Below, piece by piece: positions 283 to 56,949 of a DNA stretch of 64,000 nt. Every line of letters begins with the position of its first letter. The first letter of the stretch is position 1. The stretch lies in IMG/VR virus record IMGVR_UViG_3300001598_001791, positions 14,432 through 78,431 of that record; one strand, written 5' to 3'. Origin of the DNA: a virus. Taxonomy: Duplodnaviria > Caudoviricetes. A program made the position numbers and the translations under genes. The notes beneath the pieces are model-generated. The model had not been told where the DNA came from. It did not search any database and was given only the letters and a program-made list of their open reading frames with translations.

Positions 283-2937
283 ATGAAGAAAATAAAAGTT
301 ATAGAAGGAACTATTGCTAATTCCTTGAAAGCTATTTGAGGAAATATTGGTGGTGATATAGAAAACCAAGATGACTTAGTAGAATATATTGATGAGAAGG
401 TTTCTTCATCTGAAGGAACTCTTGATACCAAGATAACATCAGAAACTAATAATAGAGTTTCCGCTGATGTTGTTTTACAAAATAATATAAACCAAGAAAA
501 ATCTTTACGTGAAAGTGCTGATCAAGTTCTTTCAGATAGAGTTACTACTGAAAAGACTCAAAGAGAATCTTCTGATGAGACATTATCTAGTAATATCTCG
601 GCTAACTCATATGCTATTTCAAATGAAGTTTCTAATAGGACTTCTGAGATCTTACGTGTCGATGGAAGAATTGATACTGAAGCTACCACTAGACAAACAG
701 CTGATTCTTCACTCCAGTCAGCAATAAACCAAGAAGTTATTGACAGAAAAACTGCTATTGAAAATGAAGAAACCTCTAGAGTTGAAAATGATACCCTGTT
801 AAATGGTAGAATAGATAATTTACCAAAATACAATTTATATAAGGGTACTTTGGGCGTCGGTGGTACTATTACTTCATTGCCTACTGCATCAGCAGATACA
901 GTTGGTCATGTATATAGAGTTATTAGTAATGGGATTTACGGTGTTGATAATGCTGTAGTTAATGATTTATTTATTGGAGTTAATGATAGTAAAACCTGGC
1001 TAATTAATGATATTCCTGTAATTGACAACGGTATTACTACATTTACTGATAATTTTATTTCTAACAATATTACTTATTCCCAGATGAAATTAACTGGAAT
1101 TACCCTGCCAGGGATTGGAAAAGTTTATACTATTGACTATGATGATACCCAAGTTTATTCAAGCAGAAATACACCATCATGGGTAGACAGATCATATCAA
1201 CGAATTTATTTAACCAGTGATCCGTCAGAAGATCTCTTAACTTGGTTGAAGAATAATACTACAAACGGTGGATATCATTGGGTTTTAATCCCTTCTGGTT
1301 ATGTAGGAACTGTTACTAAAATTGAAACAGGTACTGGCCTTTCAGGTGGCCCAATTACTTCTACAGGGACAATCTCGGTTAATTATAGTGAAGTACAAGC
1401 TAAATTAACTCCAGGTGAACGAATTAGTATAAATAATAATACAATTAGTACTACGGCTAATGCTGTTAGTGTATCAAATACTGGAACTGCGACAGATGAA
1501 GTTCAGTATATTACAATTGATGGAGTAGAGAAGAAATTATCTGGATCAAGCATTACTGAGTATTTAAAAAATGCTTCGGTTGAGAATAATAAATTAACTT
1601 TAGTTAAAAATGATTCATCATCTATTATATATAATCCAGATATCCCTACAAAAACAAGTCAATTACAAAATGACAGTGGTTTCTTAACAAGCCATCAAAG
1701 TTTAAGTGAATATAGAAAATGGGCTGATCAAGATATTATTGATGCTCAAAAACAACCATTGTTAACACAAGGACAAAATATTGTAATAGAAAATAATGTT
1801 ATTAGTGCCATAGATACTACTTATACACAAGGTGAAAAAATAGAGATCACTAATAACACTATCAGTACTACTGCTAATGAAGTTAGTGTATCAAATGCTG
1901 GAACATCAACTGATGAAGTTAGTTATATTACAATCGATGGTACTGAGAAGAAAATTGCTGGTGAACCTAGTGAATTTATCAAGAGTGCTTCCGTTAGCAA
2001 TAAGATATTAACTTTAACTAATAAAGATGGTAGTACTGTAACATTTACAGATACAGGATCTATTGTTAGTGTAAGTAATACGGGTACTTCTACCGACACT
2101 GTTCAATACATTACAATTGATGGGGTAGAAAGAAAGCTGGCCGGTGGTGGAACTGGAAGTGGTACCGTTACTGAAGTTAGAACTGGTGCTGGCCTTACTG
2201 GTGGACCTATTACATCAAGTGGAGAGATTTCTCATTCTACAAGTGGTGTTACTGCAGGAACATATACAAAAGTAACAGTTAATAATTTAGGACATGTTAC
2301 TAATGGTACGACCTTGGGCGCAAGTGATATTCCAAATTTAACACTATCTAAGATTACAGATATTACTGCTACAGCTACAAATTTAAATTACACAAGCGGA
2401 GTAACTAGTAATATTCAAACACAATTAAATAATAAACAATCTACATTATCTGCACAAACTGCCTATAGTGCTAAAGGTAGTTCTACCAAAGTTCCCCAAA
2501 TTACAACTAATAGTCTCGGACAAGTAACCGGAATTACCGAAGTAGCTATTGCTCACCAGGATATCAGTGGAAAACAAGATACACTAGTTTCAGGAACAAA
2601 TATTAAGACAGTAAATAGCACTACACTACTTGGAAGTGGTAATTTAACTACACCATTATCAAGAATTAAATCTGGTGTTGATGTTTCTACTAGTAATTGG
2701 TCAGGTAGCTCTACTAGCTATTTTACAAAGACAATCACTCTGTCTAATTCAGGAATTACTTCTGACGATAACCCAATAGTTGATATTGACTTATCTGAGG
2801 TTACTACTAGCTCATCGGCTAAAACTAAATTAACTGAGTACAGTAAAATACTTAAAGTTACTACTGGTACTAATAGTATTACTCTGTATGCATTAGAAGT
2901 ACCTACAGAAGCTTTTAAAATTATGATTAAATATTAG
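283..2937 (+). CDS. Tail fibre / long virion protein (884 aa in code 4)
   Basis: RBS AAGGAG, ATG 283; one TGA in AIWGNIGGDIENQDDL; open in frame into track ORF 850-2937; N-terminal E..R..D..L coiled-coil repeats, Thr/Ser/Gly-rich body with internal repeats. Confidence 0.7.
1462..2145 (+). repeat. Three internal copies of a ~28-aa repeat (VSVSNxGTxTDxVxYITIDGxExKxxG) in the fibre protein
   Basis: Copies start near 1462, 1879 and 2062; GLxGGPITSxGxIS also occurs twice. Confidence 0.85.
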
Positions 2938-2949
2938 TTGAGGTAATTT

Positions 2950-3489
2950 ATGGGAAATGCATTTATTCGTAGACATGGTCTCCCAGTTCAAATAGAGGAG
3001 ATAACAGAATTTCCACAATGTTGTGGCTCTATTATTAGCAATGATCCATCCTCTACTAACACAGCAGTCAACTCCTTAACAGGTAATGCTGTTTATAACG
3101 CATCAGGTGTTGCTATTTCTCCAACAAAAAGTTTAGATAAATATTATTTGATATTTGATGGCGAAGAGTGATCATCTTCACCAGACAGAGGATGCTATAA
3201 TCTTGATACTAATAATTCAATAACTATATATTTATATTTGAAGAATGGACAATCATTTAGACCCACTAGTGTTACAAATAGTGGCCACGTCATGAGTCAC
3301 ACCGCAGATGCAACAGTAAAGGCATATGGCGGTTATGGTACTTCTGATTTATTGGCCACATTAACTACAAAAGGTACGACATCAATCACTACAGACAATT
3401 ATTATTCAATTATTACAATAGTTATAGGCCCAAATACCGCTGAAACTGATGTGGGTGAACTTACATTTAATGGGTACTGGAAACATTAA
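2950..3489 (+). CDS. Hypothetical virion-associated protein (179 aa, code 4)
   Basis: Track ORFs 2950-3171 and 3238-3489 are one frame joined through TGA 3169-3171; RBS GAGG. Confidence 0.7.
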
Positions 3490-53151: not shown

Positions 53152-54795
53152 ATGCCAATTATCCAAGAGAGTTTATTTGATTCATTTAGTGTTGATATGG
53201 ATAATACTAAAAATATTTTAACCAAATTAAAGTCACCTAAAAAGGTAAAAGAAGTAACTGTTGAAAAACAATTATCATCAAACGATGTTCCTTTTGATGA
53301 AAAATTAAGATTAGTAACAACTGAAGTAAACCGCATTTTGGGCCATTTCAAAGATGATACTATCTGCATCTATGATTATAGTGAATTAGAAAAATATATT
53401 GATAAGGCAATTCAAAATGGTGTTATTTCAGTAGATACAGAAACTATTGGTACTCGTGATGATATTGATAAACCTGCTACTGATGCGTATACTTGTAAAT
53501 TAGCTGGACCATGCCTTTATACACCGGGTATGAAAAATGCTTATATTCCAATAAACCATGTAGATCCTTATACTAATATTCGTTTAGAGAATCAATTATC
53601 AGAAGATCAGTTAACTGTCCAATTTAAAAGATTAGTTAATAATAAGGTAAAGGTAATTTATCATAATGGTAAATTCGATTATAAAGTATTATATTATACT
53701 TGTGGTGTTAAATTACCTATTTACTGGGATACTATGATCGGTGCTCAGATACTAAATGAAAATGAACAAGCAGGCCTTAAGTTTCAATATAAAGATAAAA
53801 TTAATCCAGAACAAGAGAAATATAATATTGAGAAATTATTTAACGTAGAAATGTTTCCTAAATACCCACCTGAATTGTTTGCTTTATATGCTGCTACTGA
53901 TGCCTATGAAACATATAAATTATACGAATATCAGAAGAGTCAATATGAAAAACGGGGAAACGAGAGACTATACAATTTATTTTTAAATATTGAGATGCCT
54001 GTAGTAACAGTTGTCTCTGAGATGGAAATACGTGGAGTAGGTCTTGATAATGAATTTGCACAAAGATTAAGCAAAAAATTCCATTTGAAACTTGATGATA
54101 TTAATCACGCTATTGAAGTTGAAATGGGTAAATATAGAGAGATAATTTCTGAGTGGAGATCTTCGTCTTCAGCAAATTTCCATCCGACCAAAAATGGTAA
54201 ACAACAGAAATCTATGAATGAACAGTTATCAGATCCAATTGAATTGACTTCATCAATTCAATTAGGAATATTCTTATATGATATTCTTCAAGTATTAAAG
54301 GTTGATAAAGACGGTAAAAAAGTTGTTGATGAAGCAACATTACTTATTATAAAAGATAAATTACCATTAATTAATTTAATCCTAAGGAAAAGAGAATATG
54401 AAAAATATCTTGGTACTTATATTGACGCGATACCATTGGTTGCTAGCCCAAGAGATGGTCGAATTCACCCAAAATTTAATCAACTAGGTCGAGAAGATAA
54501 AAATGTTGTTACCGGAAGATTTAGTTCAACTTCACCAAATTTCCAAAACATCCCAGCCAGAGGTCAAATAACTTCAGTAAGGTGTATGTTTGTTCCTACT
54601 ATAAATTATAATGAATTTAATAAACAAAATAATGGGTTATATGAGATACCTGTTGAAGAAGAATGTTTAATGGCTGATGGCTCATATAAATGGGTATCAG
54701 AACTGCAAGTTGATGATATACTCGATGGCGGTGAAATAGTTAAAAGTATTGGTAAAAGTACAACAGGTAGATTAATTAGAGTGGAGGTAGCTTAA
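53152..54795 (+). CDS. polA: Family A DNA polymerase, N-terminal part (3'-5' exonuclease, thumb, start of palm) with a Hint-like C-terminal appendage
   Basis: Exo DTET, HNGKFD, YAATDA; TGRFSSTSPNFQNIP; VRCMFVP, then LMADGSYKWVSELQVDDIL and a stop. Confidence 0.88.
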   Translation: MPIIQESLFDSFSVDMDNTKNILTKLKSPKKVKEVTVEKQLSSNDVPFDEKLRLVTTEVNRILGHFKDDTICIYDYSELEKYIDKAIQNGVISVDTETIGTRDDIDKPATDAYTCKLAGPCLYTPGMKNAYIPINHVDPYTNIRLENQLSEDQLTVQFKRLVNNKVKVIYHNGKFDYKVLYYTCGVKLPIYWDTMIGAQILNENEQAGLKFQYKDKINPEQEKYNIEKLFNVEMFPKYPPELFALYAATDAYETYKLYEYQKSQYEKRGNERLYNLFLNIEMPVVTVVSEMEIRGVGLDNEFAQRLSKKFHLKLDDINHAIEVEMGKYREIISEWRSSSSANFHPTKNGKQQKSMNEQLSDPIELTSSIQLGIFLYDILQVLKVDKDGKKVVDEATLLIIKDKLPLINLILRKREYEKYLGTYIDAIPLVASPRDGRIHPKFNQLGREDKNVVTGRFSSTSPNFQNIPARGQITSVRCMFVPTINYNEFNKQNNGLYEIPVEEECLMADGSYKWVSELQVDDILDGGEIVKSIGKSTTGRLIRVEVA

Positions 54796-54805
54796 GTTCA
54801 AAAAG

Positions 54806-54928
54806 ATGATTAAAGATAATAAAGTTACCCGAGCCAAAAAAGAAGAAATAGATAAATATTTACAAGAAGGATACAAATTTGTATCCAAGAAAGGTGGTGA
54901 TATAAATGAAAAGTCTAAAAACTCGTAG
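54806..54928 (+). pseudogene. Possible endonuclease-gene remnant between the PolA halves (40 codons)
   Basis: MIKDNKVTRAKKEEIDKYLQEGYKF resembles C-terminal tails of homing endonucleases; position mirrors the GIY-YIG gene in the terminase. Confidence 0.35.
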
Positions 54929-56348
54929 AAGATATCAACTTCTAGGTGCAGACTTTTCCTAAAGTCTGCTCAGGAAGTTAAGGTATTTGCACAAACATGT
55001 GGTGATGAAACTCTATTGTCAGCCTTAATGGCCGGAAAAGATTTATATTCAGAGGTAGCTTCGAGTGTTTATAATATGCCATATTCTGAGTGTTGTGAAT
55101 TCAGACCAGATGGAACCTTTAATTTAGAAGGTAAACAACGACGAACTAAGTCCAAGAGTATTGTATTGGGTTAATTTTTGTACTCTTGGACTAAAACATT
55201 AAGCCCCTTCACATAGTAATATGTGTCGAATAACGATGTGAACTGCGATTACAAGCAGGTGTCTAAAGATAAGAACAAATAACTTTAGGCTAACGGCAAA
55301 AGCTTATTATTAAGTTAAAGTTAATGCCGTGCTAAGATTTTATTAACAGTGAAATAAAGTGTATCGACTAACTCTGATGAATGTAAGAGTGTAAGGTGGA
55401 GATGTTACCATTTGAAGCGCATCGCAACCATATGGTTGATGAAATAGTCAGTACTATTAGGAATAATAGATAATTACGTTAATGTATGGGCGTGGTACTA
55501 GTTCTATTGCAGAACAGATCAAATCTCACCCAGGCCCGGTAACCAAAGAGGATAAAGAGGAAGCAAAAGCTATTGTTGATAATTTCTTTACTAACTATCC
55601 CGGTGCTAAGGAATGGGTAGAAAGAATGCATAAACAAGCTAGAGAAATTGGGTATGTTGAAGATATTTGGGGTAGAAGAAGAAATTTACCTGATGCTTCC
55701 TTACCTAAATATACTTTTGAATCTATAGAGACAGACTCAAGTAGTTTTAACCCATTAATTGACTCACCTTTAGTTATAAAGGAAGTTAGCCAAAACATCA
55801 TTGATAAGTATTCTCAATTACTTGATAAAACATTTAGTGTGGAGAAAAGGAAAGAAATTATTGATGATGCCCTAAGATATGATAAAGTAAAAATTACTAA
55901 TAATAGTGGTTTTATTGCTCAAGCAGAAAGACAAAGCCAAAATTCACCAATACAGGGTGGAGCAGCTACTATGACAAAAATTGGTATGCGTGATATCCAC
56001 TTTGATAAAGAGTTAAATGACCTTGATCTTCACTTATTAATTCCTGTTCATGATGAAGTTATTGCTGAGGCTCCACTTTGGAATATTGAAGAAGCTAAGA
56101 AGAGAATGTTTTATCTAATGTGTAATGCTGGGAAACCTGAGTTTAAATTACCAATGAAATGTGATGGTGATGACTGGTCAAGATGGTATCTAGATGTTTG
56201 TGGACAACATATTAGAGATGAATATCAAGAAAGTATTAAGAGTGGGTGTGCTCCGGAAGTAGCTTTCCAAGATGTTTATGAGAATAATTGTGAATTTACA
56301 GAAGATCAGATAAAGTTAATTTTAGAAGATAATAAACGTGATGTTTAG
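54906..56348 (+). CDS. polA: Family A DNA polymerase, C-terminal part (motifs A, B, C; 375 aa from segments 54906-54959, 54968-55171, 55479-56348)
   Basis: RBS GGTGG; LLGADFS[8 nt]AQEVK (motif A); RTKSKSIVLG|LMYG (motif B across intron); AERQSQNSPIQG; VHDEV (motif C). Confidence 0.82.
54948..54969 (+). other. Stop-containing 8-nt insertion in a 9-bp hairpin within PolA motif A
   Basis: GCAGACTTT-TCCT-AAAGTCTGC; reading GAC TTT TCC TAA AG TCT GCT CAG GAA. Confidence 0.85.
55172..55478 (+). ncRNA. Group I intron in PolA motif B (307 nt, no ORF)
   Basis: Exon ends GGT, intron starts TAA and ends ATTACG; core GTGAACTGCG, AATGCCGTGCTAAG, TATCGACTA, GAAATAGTCAG; splicing gives VLG-LMYG. Confidence 0.85.
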
Positions 56349-56422: not shown

Positions 56423-56949
56423 ATGAATATCGTTATATACGGTTGCGATAACTGTGGTTAAGTAAGACCACATTAGCAGAATTTCTAGAAGATGAGTTAT
56501 GCGGTAAACAAGTTCATAGCTTAGGTAATGTCTCGATTGAAAAACAGGTAGAATTTATGAATAATGAACTTTTACCAAAAGGAAGTACTTCTATTAAAAT
56601 ATTTGATAGATTCCCCATTATTGAAGAGGAAGTATATGGTAATCTTTTGCGTGGTGGAAGTAAATATGATTCAGACCCTGACTTCAAAAAAGAAATGTTA
56701 GATAAAATTGATTTATTTATCTACGCATACCCTGGATTACTATCAACTTTAAATTGGAATAACCGAGAACAGATGGATGGTGTAATTGAAAACGTAATTA
56801 AAATTATAAATGAGTATAATAAGATTACTTATAGTTTTATAACTGAAAGATCAGTTATTGAGTTTAATTATAATGAAGATCCTTATTATATGAAGATATC
56901 AAAAAAGATAAAGGAGTTTATTAATGAACACAATCGATGTGAAATATAA
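56423..56949 (+). CDS. dNMP (thymidylate-like) kinase, 173 aa, requiring removal of a 5-nt insertion at 56459-56463
   Basis: RBS GAGGAGG; MNIVIYGCDNCG[TAAGT]KTTLAEFL; FDRF motif; track ORF 56557 is only the distal part. Confidence 0.8.
56453..56472 (+). other. Stop-containing 5-nt insertion in a hairpin within the kinase P-loop
   Basis: TGTGGT-TAAGTAAG-ACCACA; reading TGT GGT TAA GT AAG ACC ACA. Confidence 0.85.

Follow-up and report, generated by a model that had tools for sequence, protein, structure and literature searches.

The stretch analysed here, hereafter called the window, comprises 64,000 nucleotides (nt) of a 78.4-kb viral contig from IMG/VR (record IMGVR_UViG_3300001598_001791; G+C 30%), a record in which 47% of the genome is estimated to be present. 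The family A DNA polymerase of this phage is encoded by a naturally split gene with two halves, PolA-N and PolA-C, and the catalytic motif A at the beginning of PolA-C is interrupted by 8 nt that contain a stop codon. Inserts of this kind recur at the same codon in ten diverged relatives and go together with a homing-endonuclease cassette. We think that they are probably overcome by a programmed translational hop between two serine codons. The locus is organized as follows.

53152..54795, + strand: PolA-N, 547 amino acids (aa), ending with TAA after a cassette-derived tail (open reading frame (ORF) list; Pfam PF01612 and PF00476)
54601..54792, + strand: C-terminal extension (CTE) of PolA-N, which begins with INYNEF, ends with RLIRVEVA, and measures about 64 aa
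54806..54928, + strand: remnant of a free-standing GIY-YIG homing endonuclease gene, 40 codons
54893..54901, + strand: strong Shine-Dalgarno (SD) sequence of PolA-C, GGTGGTGAT (from the sequence)
54906..54959, + strand: PolA-C leader MKSLKTRRRYQLLGADFS, then a stop; 18 codons from the ATG at 54906 to the take-off codon
54948..54969, + strand: perfect 9-bp hairpin with loop TCCT; take-off codon in the loop, landing codon in the 3' arm
54957..54959, + strand: proposed take-off codon TCC (Ser), also used in L108, L109, and L087
54960..54964, + strand: coding gap TAAAG, consisting of the stop TAA and AG
54965..54967, + strand: proposed landing codon TCT (Ser); decoding would resume at GCT (Ala), as judged by alignment with intact relatives
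54965..55171, + strand: PolA-C coding segment from motif A to ...KSIVLG, 69 codons
55172..55478, + strand: group I intron without an ORF, between IVLG and LMYG, 307 nt, preceded by U at the 5' splice site and ending in G
55479..56348, + strand: last PolA-C segment with motifs B and C, 289 codons and a stop (Pfam PF00476)

Positions 54945-54976 read GGT GCA GAC TTT TCC TAA AG TCT GCT CAG GAA. If 8 nt are removed, the translation becomes G-A-D-F-S-A-Q-E-V-K, which is motif A exactly as encoded by intact relatives. The break falls between codons 18 and 19 of the separately initiated PolA-C, within a hairpin whose arms GCAGACTTT (54948-54956) and AAAGTCTGC (54961-54969) pair without a mismatch. 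The RNA fold of positions 54930-54985 has a free energy of -20.9 kcal/mol (z = -4.3 versus dinucleotide shuffles). A strong role for the outer stem of this fold was rejected, as it is not conserved in L108 or L109. Perfect 9-bp hairpins are not rare in this AT-rich window (21 were found, versus about 5 in Markov simulations), so that the stem alone proves little and its significance rests on its placement and on recurrence in relatives. An exact search for the hairpin in IMG/VR gave no further copy. We also rejected an origin of the 8 nt by quasi-palindrome template switching, since the upstream CTTT could template AAAG alone, while the loop TCCT has no template.

The first-pass annotation of this DNA had described both the stop-containing insert and the perfect stem with its TCCT loop, and both descriptions are confirmed. 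It had also stated that removal of the 8 nt restores motif A together with the frame leading to motifs B and C. The first part of this statement stands, but the restored frame ends at 55171 and reaches motifs B and C only after the 307-nt intron is removed as well. Similarly, it had seen a single interrupted gene; the insert is real, but the polymerase is naturally split, with an endonuclease remnant between its halves.

PolA-N contains the 3'-5' exonuclease and the N-terminal portion of the family A polymerase domain. Its CTE is missing from uninvaded polymerases, in which ...MF.A.(PG)Y runs directly into motif A. The 40-codon ORF behind PolA-N retains a start and the last approximately 37 codons of an endonuclease gene, the body of which is deleted. 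It shares 56% identity (E = 3e-8, BLASTP) with the last 27 aa of an intact endonuclease of 276 aa, which is encoded at the same place in L108 and matches Pfam GIY-YIG. Pfam gave no match for the 40-aa ORF itself, the identity of which comes from this pairwise match to the L108 endonuclease alone; it is a deletion remnant of the endonuclease gene. The PolA-C leader contains a basic N-terminal extension and the catalytic Asp of motif A, and homologous PolA-C starts are present in L003, L012, L014, L108, and L109. A strong SD sequence likewise precedes PolA-C in every insert-bearing relative. The intron matches RF00028 weakly; the 21.4 bits (E = 0.002) fall short of the gathering score. L004 and L005 lack the intron, and in L014 and L109 its site is occupied by homologous introns containing a GIY-YIG/NUMOD3 gene or a remnant of it (760 nt in L109). 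An Rfam scan over 10 kb found no family at the insert site, a megablast search of the locus against GenBank phages gave no match, a look-up of public sequencing runs listed none with this stretch, and neither tRNA nor suppressor genes were found in the whole 78-kb record or in L055, L108, and L109.

The first-pass annotation had proposed to look for recurrence of such inserts, with compensatory stem changes, directly behind the DFS codons of related polymerases, and this check turned out positive. We scanned JGI metagenome contigs and IMG/VR with the 69-aa segment that follows the insert, and added contigs of split-type proteins, which gave about 100 loci. In 11 distinct contigs from different samples, namely the window and ten relatives, the Ser codon of D[FY]S is directly followed by an insert; they are listed below with the first Ser codon, the gap, the second Ser codon, and the resulting shift.

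Window: TCC TAA AG TCT, shift +8
L108: TCC TAA CGA TCT, shift +9
L109: TCC TAG TGG TCT, shift +9
L020: TCT TAA G TCT, shift +7
L026 (identical to L086): TCT TAG TCA, shift +6
L055: TCT TAG TCA, shift +6
L087: TCC TAG TA TCA, shift +8
L094: TCT TAG AGC GG TCA, shift +11
L024: TCT TAG CAA TAA AAG TCA, shift +15
L080: TCT TAA CAG TGA AAG TCA, shift +15
L040: AGT T AGT, in which the stop TAG overlaps the second AGT, shift +4

The gaps measure 1-12 nt and the inserts 4-15 nt. All three frame relations are represented, and no single frameshift or readthrough event accounts for every insert. A stop codon stands directly 3' of the first Ser codon in 11 of 11 cases (UAA in four, UAG in seven, UGA never), and a Ser codon of the same box stands immediately before the resume codon in each of them, although homologues have one Ser only. 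The codon pairs are UCC/UCU (three times), UCU/UCU (once), UCU/UCA (five times), UCC/UCA (once), and AGU/AGU (once). The matching of take-off and landing codons, which had been noticed in the window only, thus holds at the level of the codon box throughout, including the AGU/AGU pair. The take-off codon is codon 17-19 from the likely start in the insert-bearing genes.

In nine of the eleven inserts there is a hairpin that is more stable than its counterpart in the version lacking the insert. One side of its stem consists of the Asp-Phe codons, the other of the last gap bases and the landing codon, and the paired bases covary between clades: the stem is CAGAC/GUCUG in the window and L109, and GUGAC/GUCAC in the other clade. 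This covariation accounts for the use of UCU or UCA as landing codon. The free bases of the gap favour pairing modestly (Fisher combined p = 0.02, eight cases).

The inserts are tied to the splitting of the gene. Of the 17 genes with a split at this site, 11 have an insert, whereas no unsplit gene has one (82 loci, at least 53 of them distinct; Fisher p = 6e-9). A GIY-YIG gene lies between the halves in L026, L055, L080, and L108, and an HNH_3 gene in L087; in L020, L024, L040, L094, and L109 there is nothing between them. The endonuclease ORF overlaps the start of the downstream half in L026 and L108, as does the remnant in the window. In the PolA-C tree the insert-bearing rows are scattered, and the well-supported branches require at least six changes. 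PolA tails are homologous between the clade of the window and the other clade, and one element family therefore invaded diverse polymerases. Many PolA-N proteins of 540-555 aa with the same type of tail were found in a protein search.

The closest comparison is that of L055, which carries an insert, with its unsplit sister L074, to which it is 95-100% identical at the nucleotide level outside the site. A block of 945 nt in L055 takes the place of two codons in L074 and consists of a 70-aa tail with a stop, a 235-aa GIY-YIG gene, an SD sequence, a start codon, and the tail MKKLLARRN. In the 120-nt tract that adjoins this block downstream, identity is 78-83%, and within it AGT is replaced by TCT TAG TCA; beyond the tract, identity is back at 95-100%. 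Therefore, the insert travels with the cassette. The tract looks like a co-conversion tract, with the insert 24 nt from the junction. The same comparison shows that the tail comes with the cassette; the CTE of the window's PolA-N is likewise part of the mobile cassette.

Further states of the cassette were seen among the relatives. PolA-C of L003, L012, L014, L110, and L111 starts with M..(L)KTRRRY... and crosses motif A without an insert. In L004, L005, and L009 the tail is partly kept within one ORF of 894-916 aa, and these are apparently re-fused genes.

Several loci differ in other respects. The polymerase of L012 (3608-6252) is distributed over three ORFs, a 128-aa exonuclease piece and two of 378 and 371 aa; at its motif A split, stop and start overlap as TAATG, and an insert is lacking. 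L076 (1127-3423) is split at the same site without an insert; two large ORFs of 470 and 302 aa separate its halves, and its PolA-C hardly differs from that of unsplit L019, L073, and L075. In L024 a GIY-YIG-like gene (1793-2599) lies downstream of PolA-C rather than between the halves. PolA-N of L040 is further interrupted at the NLQNIP motif (2504-3214) by a stretch that has an HNH_3 ORF and is therefore probably a further intron. A stop stands at the same NLQNIP position, about 100 nt upstream of motif A, in L065 and L069. Finally, the PolA-N tail (window 54640-54792; P0002-P0032) resembles the start of a Hint/intein N-fragment (C-L-M-A-D-G-S-Y-K-W...G-D-x-L...), and it may be a split-intein relic or a small beta domain that keeps the halves together.

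We then asked whether the polymerase is still functional. The PolA-C frame is complete, with 306-358 codons, in all nine cases that can be judged. The ratio of nonsynonymous to synonymous substitution rates (dN/dS) was computed by the method of Nei and Gojobori downstream of the insert between insert-bearing genes. It is 0.17 for the window and L108 (dS 1.2), 0.13 for the window and L109, and 0.18 for L108 and L109, at a dS of about 1-1.5 within this clade; outside it, values of 0.11 (L055-L080) and 0.05 (L040-L055) were obtained. The window, L108, and L109 share the form TCC-stop-...-TCT, and divergence around their inserts is the same as elsewhere, which means that the insert has been carried through long purifying selection in these three. 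In four insert-bearing genomes that are 96-100% complete, one of them with terminal repeats, a search for a second polymerase found no other family A and no family B enzyme; the same was true of the window's record, with its 47% of the genome. The observation that the rest of the gene shows no decay is upheld by the complete downstream frames and dN/dS values of 0.05-0.18, which contradict a recent palindrome mutation in a decaying gene. Taken together, these comparisons indicate that the insert is a real, inherited, and cassette-borne feature of a functional gene.

A second insert lies next to the polymerase, in a dNMP-kinase-like gene starting at 56423. This gene reads ...GCDNCG GGT TAA GT AAG ACC ACA (56453-56472), and removal of 5 nt (TAAGT, 56459-56463) restores the P-loop GCDNCGKTT. 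The insert sits in a hairpin with the arms TGTGGT/ACCACA. At the same kinase codon, another phage (L105/L117) reads GGT TAG C AAA ACC ACG with the stem GTGGTT/AACCAC (L117 about 1490-1510, corresponding to L105 from 4652 onward), and the P-loop is intact in about ten other relatives. There is no endonuclease gene adjacent to the kinase insert. A scan of IMG/VR with the single kinase protein yielded nothing, and an alignment-based scan yielded 10 loci. The recurrence of the kinase insert supports a general tolerance of such inserts in these phages.

The genetic code of the phage may bear on the choice of stop codons. The long ORFs of the window are delimited by TAA or TAG and contain 53 in-frame TGA versus 136 TGG codons; its polymerase genes contain no TGA. 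PolA-N of L110 (3001-4647) translates to its database protein only if TGA is read as Trp. That the first stop of the inserts is never UGA, together with the in-frame TGA counts, fits a reading of UGA as Trp.

In our view, programmed Ser-to-Ser translational hopping, functionally like that of T4 gene 60/mobA, is the best explanation of these data, and a likely one. The first-pass annotation had arrived at programmed bypassing from the window, and the comparison of the eleven contigs lends support to this proposal. On this reading, a mobile homing-endonuclease cassette has invaded family A polymerase genes of a group of uncultured phages and split them just before motif A. The upstream half received a C-terminal tail, and the downstream half an endonuclease gene, a strong SD sequence, a start codon, and a basic N-terminal tail. 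About 24-50 nt further, within the catalytic motif, the cassette placed a few nucleotides that include a stop, and by analogy with T4 mobA this insert may keep the invaded allele from renewed cutting. In the window, the endonuclease gene was later deleted to the 40-codon stub, with the hop site kept.

While translating PolA-C of the window, a ribosome would arrive at codon 18, UCC, and UAA would then occupy the A site. The pairing of the peptidyl-tRNA(Ser) would be released, the mRNA would slide by 8 nt, and the tRNA would re-pair with UCU, so that decoding resumes at GCU. The predicted product reads ...GADFSAQEVK..., and the predicted junction peptide is ...LLGADFSAQEVK or ...YQLLGADFSAQEVK. 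The same process would cover all eleven cases, with the mRNA sliding by 4-15 nt and the tRNA re-pairing at the next Ser codon. TCC makes up 3% of the Ser codons in the long ORFs of the window, UCA 39%, and UCU 29%. If one tRNA(Ser) with U34 reads the whole box, a move from a UCC take-off codon to a UCA or UCU landing codon would be one from weaker to stronger pairing.

Several observations weigh against such a hop. Take-off and landing codons are identical in only 2 of the 11 cases, and the others match at positions 1 and 2; the non-identical pairs would need a single tRNA(Ser) that reads both codons. In the kinase inserts, decoding would resume behind AGT or AGC, and either triplet is a poor match to GGT, which hints that codon matching is perhaps not the whole mechanism. 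The hairpin is weak or absent in L108 and L087. It also has no obvious mechanical role, because both of its arms would be inside the ribosome at take-off; it might instead act on the mRNA outside translation or on the DNA in endonuclease immunity, or be a trace of the origin of the insert. Since the cassettes are homologous, the eleven cases do not represent eleven independent origins, and the basic leader peptide occurs in relatives without an insert as well. No enhancer of hopping was identified at the site. Spontaneous short stop hops in E. coli, as studied by Weiss in 1987 and O'Connor in 1989, are said to be inefficient, and such hops have also been called low-efficiency in a preprint (bioRxiv 10.1101/2022.08.31.505936).

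We infer that the ribosome removes the insert, and not a process acting on the RNA. If the insert were removed or skipped at the RNA level, the mRNA would be colinear with the protein. This could be brought about by an unknown excision of the hairpin loop with ligation, or by an RNA polymerase that realigns across a short direct repeat (TC...TC, TCT...TCT, or TAGT TAGT). The location of most inserts in a hairpin with covarying paired bases would suit such a process, as would the short direct repeats that flank every gap, the insert of L040 being a tandem TAGT duplication. It would also suit the kinase P-loop inserts of the window and L117, which share a hairpin of their own but have no well matched landing codon. 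On the other hand, no process is known in bacteria or phages that cuts 4-15 nt from an mRNA, a group I reaction requires a catalytic core, and the polymerase hairpin is weak in L108 and L087. Moreover, all 11 cases have their stop immediately behind the first Ser codon, which is expected for a ribosomal event and irrelevant to one at the RNA level. We consider removal from the RNA to be unlikely. The more specific suggestion of a micro-intron with U...G ends, made as an alternative in the first-pass annotation, finds no support: inserts are as short as 4 nt, within a range of 4-15 nt, and the boundary rule fails in several cases. C precedes the insert in L020, L026, L087, and L094, and the last base of the insert is A or U in L108, L087, and L040.

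Instead, the insert might inactivate PolA-C. It would then be a cassette scar or an immunity mutation in a recently dead passenger gene, and a host or helper polymerase would replicate the phage. The few percent of difference between L055 and uninvaded L074 indicate a recent invasion, after which decay would not yet be visible, and the record of the window is estimated to cover only 47% of its genome. The window, L108, and L109, however, share TCC-stop-...-TCT at a dS of about 1-1.5 with a dN/dS of 0.13-0.18 downstream. All downstream frames are complete, and the gap is variable, unlike the stop and the two Ser codons around it. Elaborate cassette tails that keep a split enzyme working would be pointless in a dead gene, and no second polymerase was found in the four nearly complete genomes. 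A dead polymerase is thus quite unlikely.

A mixture of recoding events, with readthrough of the in-frame inserts and +1 or -1 frameshifting at the others, would add 1-5 residues to motif A. Six of the 11 inserts are multiples of three, and the -1 frame of the window is open through the gap, where it reads ...LFLKSAQE. Such a mixture is nevertheless very unlikely. L024 and L080 carry two in-frame stops, there is neither an X XXY YYZ heptamer nor a cognate +1 triplet at any out-of-frame site, and the 78-kb record has no tRNA gene and hence no suppressor. The active site of a family A polymerase should not survive extra residues that separate the catalytic Asp from the Glu of D[FY]SxxE.

The 8 nt can hardly be an assembly or sequencing artefact: although the window comes from one metagenomic contig of which the protein collection offers no replicate, ten other assemblies (JGI, ENA, Logan) from other samples and pipelines have different inserts at the same codon, and L108 and L109 repeat its TCC-stop-...-TCT form.

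Two further candidates were rejected. Termination and reinitiation after the 18-codon leader would require a start codon, and no AUG, GUG, or UUG lies close to the point where decoding resumes; in addition, it is the leader that carries the catalytic Asp. A split intein would require an Int-C of about 35 aa or more that ends in HN at the head of the downstream half, and a conserved first Cys in the upstream one. No Int-C is present, PolA-C has only about 9 residues before the native sequence, and most relatives have Val in place of the Cys.

The natural cases in which programmed bypassing is firmly established are T4 gene 60, together with its myovirus topoisomerase homologues, and one yeast mitochondrion. 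The gene 60 bypass and the MobA element were reportedly described by Huang in 1988 and Bonocora in 2011. In the MobA element, an endonuclease cassette interrupts the topoisomerase gene and supplies it with tails, and a stop-led gap early in the downstream half blocks re-cutting (bioRxiv 10.1101/2022.08.31.505936). The known decay series comprises an endonuclease pseudogene, a bypass kept after loss of the endonuclease, loss of the bypass, and refusion (bioRxiv 10.1101/2022.08.31.505936). The polymerase locus resembles this system closely. Here, too, a free-standing endonuclease cassette has split an essential gene of DNA metabolism and given its halves C- and N-terminal tails, and a stop-led insert flanked by matching codons lies early in the downstream half, at codon 18 compared to codon 46 in T4. 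The insert lies within the tract that was transferred along with the cassette in L055 relative to L074, and all decay states are represented: intact endonuclease, pseudogene, retention of the insert after the endonuclease was lost, loss of the insert from a still split gene, and refusion.

In contrast to T4 gene 60, the target is motif A of a family A polymerase and not the large subunit of topoisomerase II, and instead of MobA the endonuclease is of the GIY-YIG or HNH_3 type. Gaps measure 1-12 nt here (shift +4 to +15) and 50 nt in T4, and the take-off codon lies in the loop or at the end of the stem, whereas it lies on the 5' side of the take-off stem-loop in T4. Neither an internal SD sequence nor a barrier to forward slippage was seen, the landing codons are mostly synonymous rather than identical, and there is no sequence homology. 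With a different gene, endonuclease, gap length, and stem-loop geometry, the polymerase insert is not a member of the homologous T4 gene 60/MobA family.

The proposed hop also resembles those seen with reporters in E. coli, in which a peptidyl-tRNA leaves its codon beside a slow A-site codon and re-pairs a few nt downstream independently of the frame; UCU UAG UCA of L026 and L055 corresponds to "9 nt specifying one amino acid" in those experiments. Unlike the reporter hops, which are synthetic or unprogrammed and inefficient, the sites described here are natural and conserved in the sole polymerase, and an adequate hop yield is therefore implied.

The byp elements of Magnusiomyces capitatus are 27-55 nt long, resemble GC clusters, and number 81 per mitochondrial genome (Lang 2014; Nosek 2015; via bioRxiv 10.1101/2022.08.31.505936). 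They share with the polymerase inserts their mobility, a place in essential genes, matched take-off and landing codons, a codon behind the take-off site that cannot be decoded, and the potential to form hairpins. They lack an endonuclease cassette, whereas the inserts described here are 4-15 nt long, occur at one or two sites per phage genome, and are tied to a homing endonuclease. Fractured genes, which are rejoined by split inteins, form another point of reference (Dassa 2009, PMC2677866). As in these genes and with MobE in nrdA of Aeh1, an endonuclease cassette cuts the gene and supplies a stop, a start, and overlapping control signals. Unlike there, a stop-containing insert is present here, Int-C is absent, and the Cys at the tail head is not conserved. 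According to the preprint of Manning and Atkins on the T4 case, reports of similar bypassing from other phages were lacking (bioRxiv 10.1101/2022.08.31.505936), and full-text literature searches found no published description of hops in family A polymerases.

A broader generalization is possible but tentative. Ultra-short hops with gaps of 1-12 nt could be a general trick of such cassettes, by which they place their self-immunity in the most conserved catalytic codons of replication genes. Decoding would then depend on an undescribed signal composed of a hairpin and Ser codons, in which the codons before take-off would be paired with the landing codon and a weakly read Ser codon (the rare UCC, or UCU) would be exchanged for a better read one (UCA or UCU). 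In these phages, which apparently read UGA as Trp, the translation system of the host may broadly permit hopping at UAA and UAG.

For annotation, the inserts call for caution: gene callers cut at the stop and report a "truncated" PolA-C without motif A, such as the 340-aa call in L108. If the hop is true, it constitutes a bypass family independent of those known, located in the active-site codons of the sole DNA polymerase. Gaps of 1-12 nt would then make it a minimal and easily engineered system for studying release and re-pairing by the ribosome, for which evolution has already supplied a natural series of gap lengths and frames. For the phages themselves, it would mean that a selfish endonuclease may protect its own allele within an invariant catalytic motif while the protein remains unchanged.

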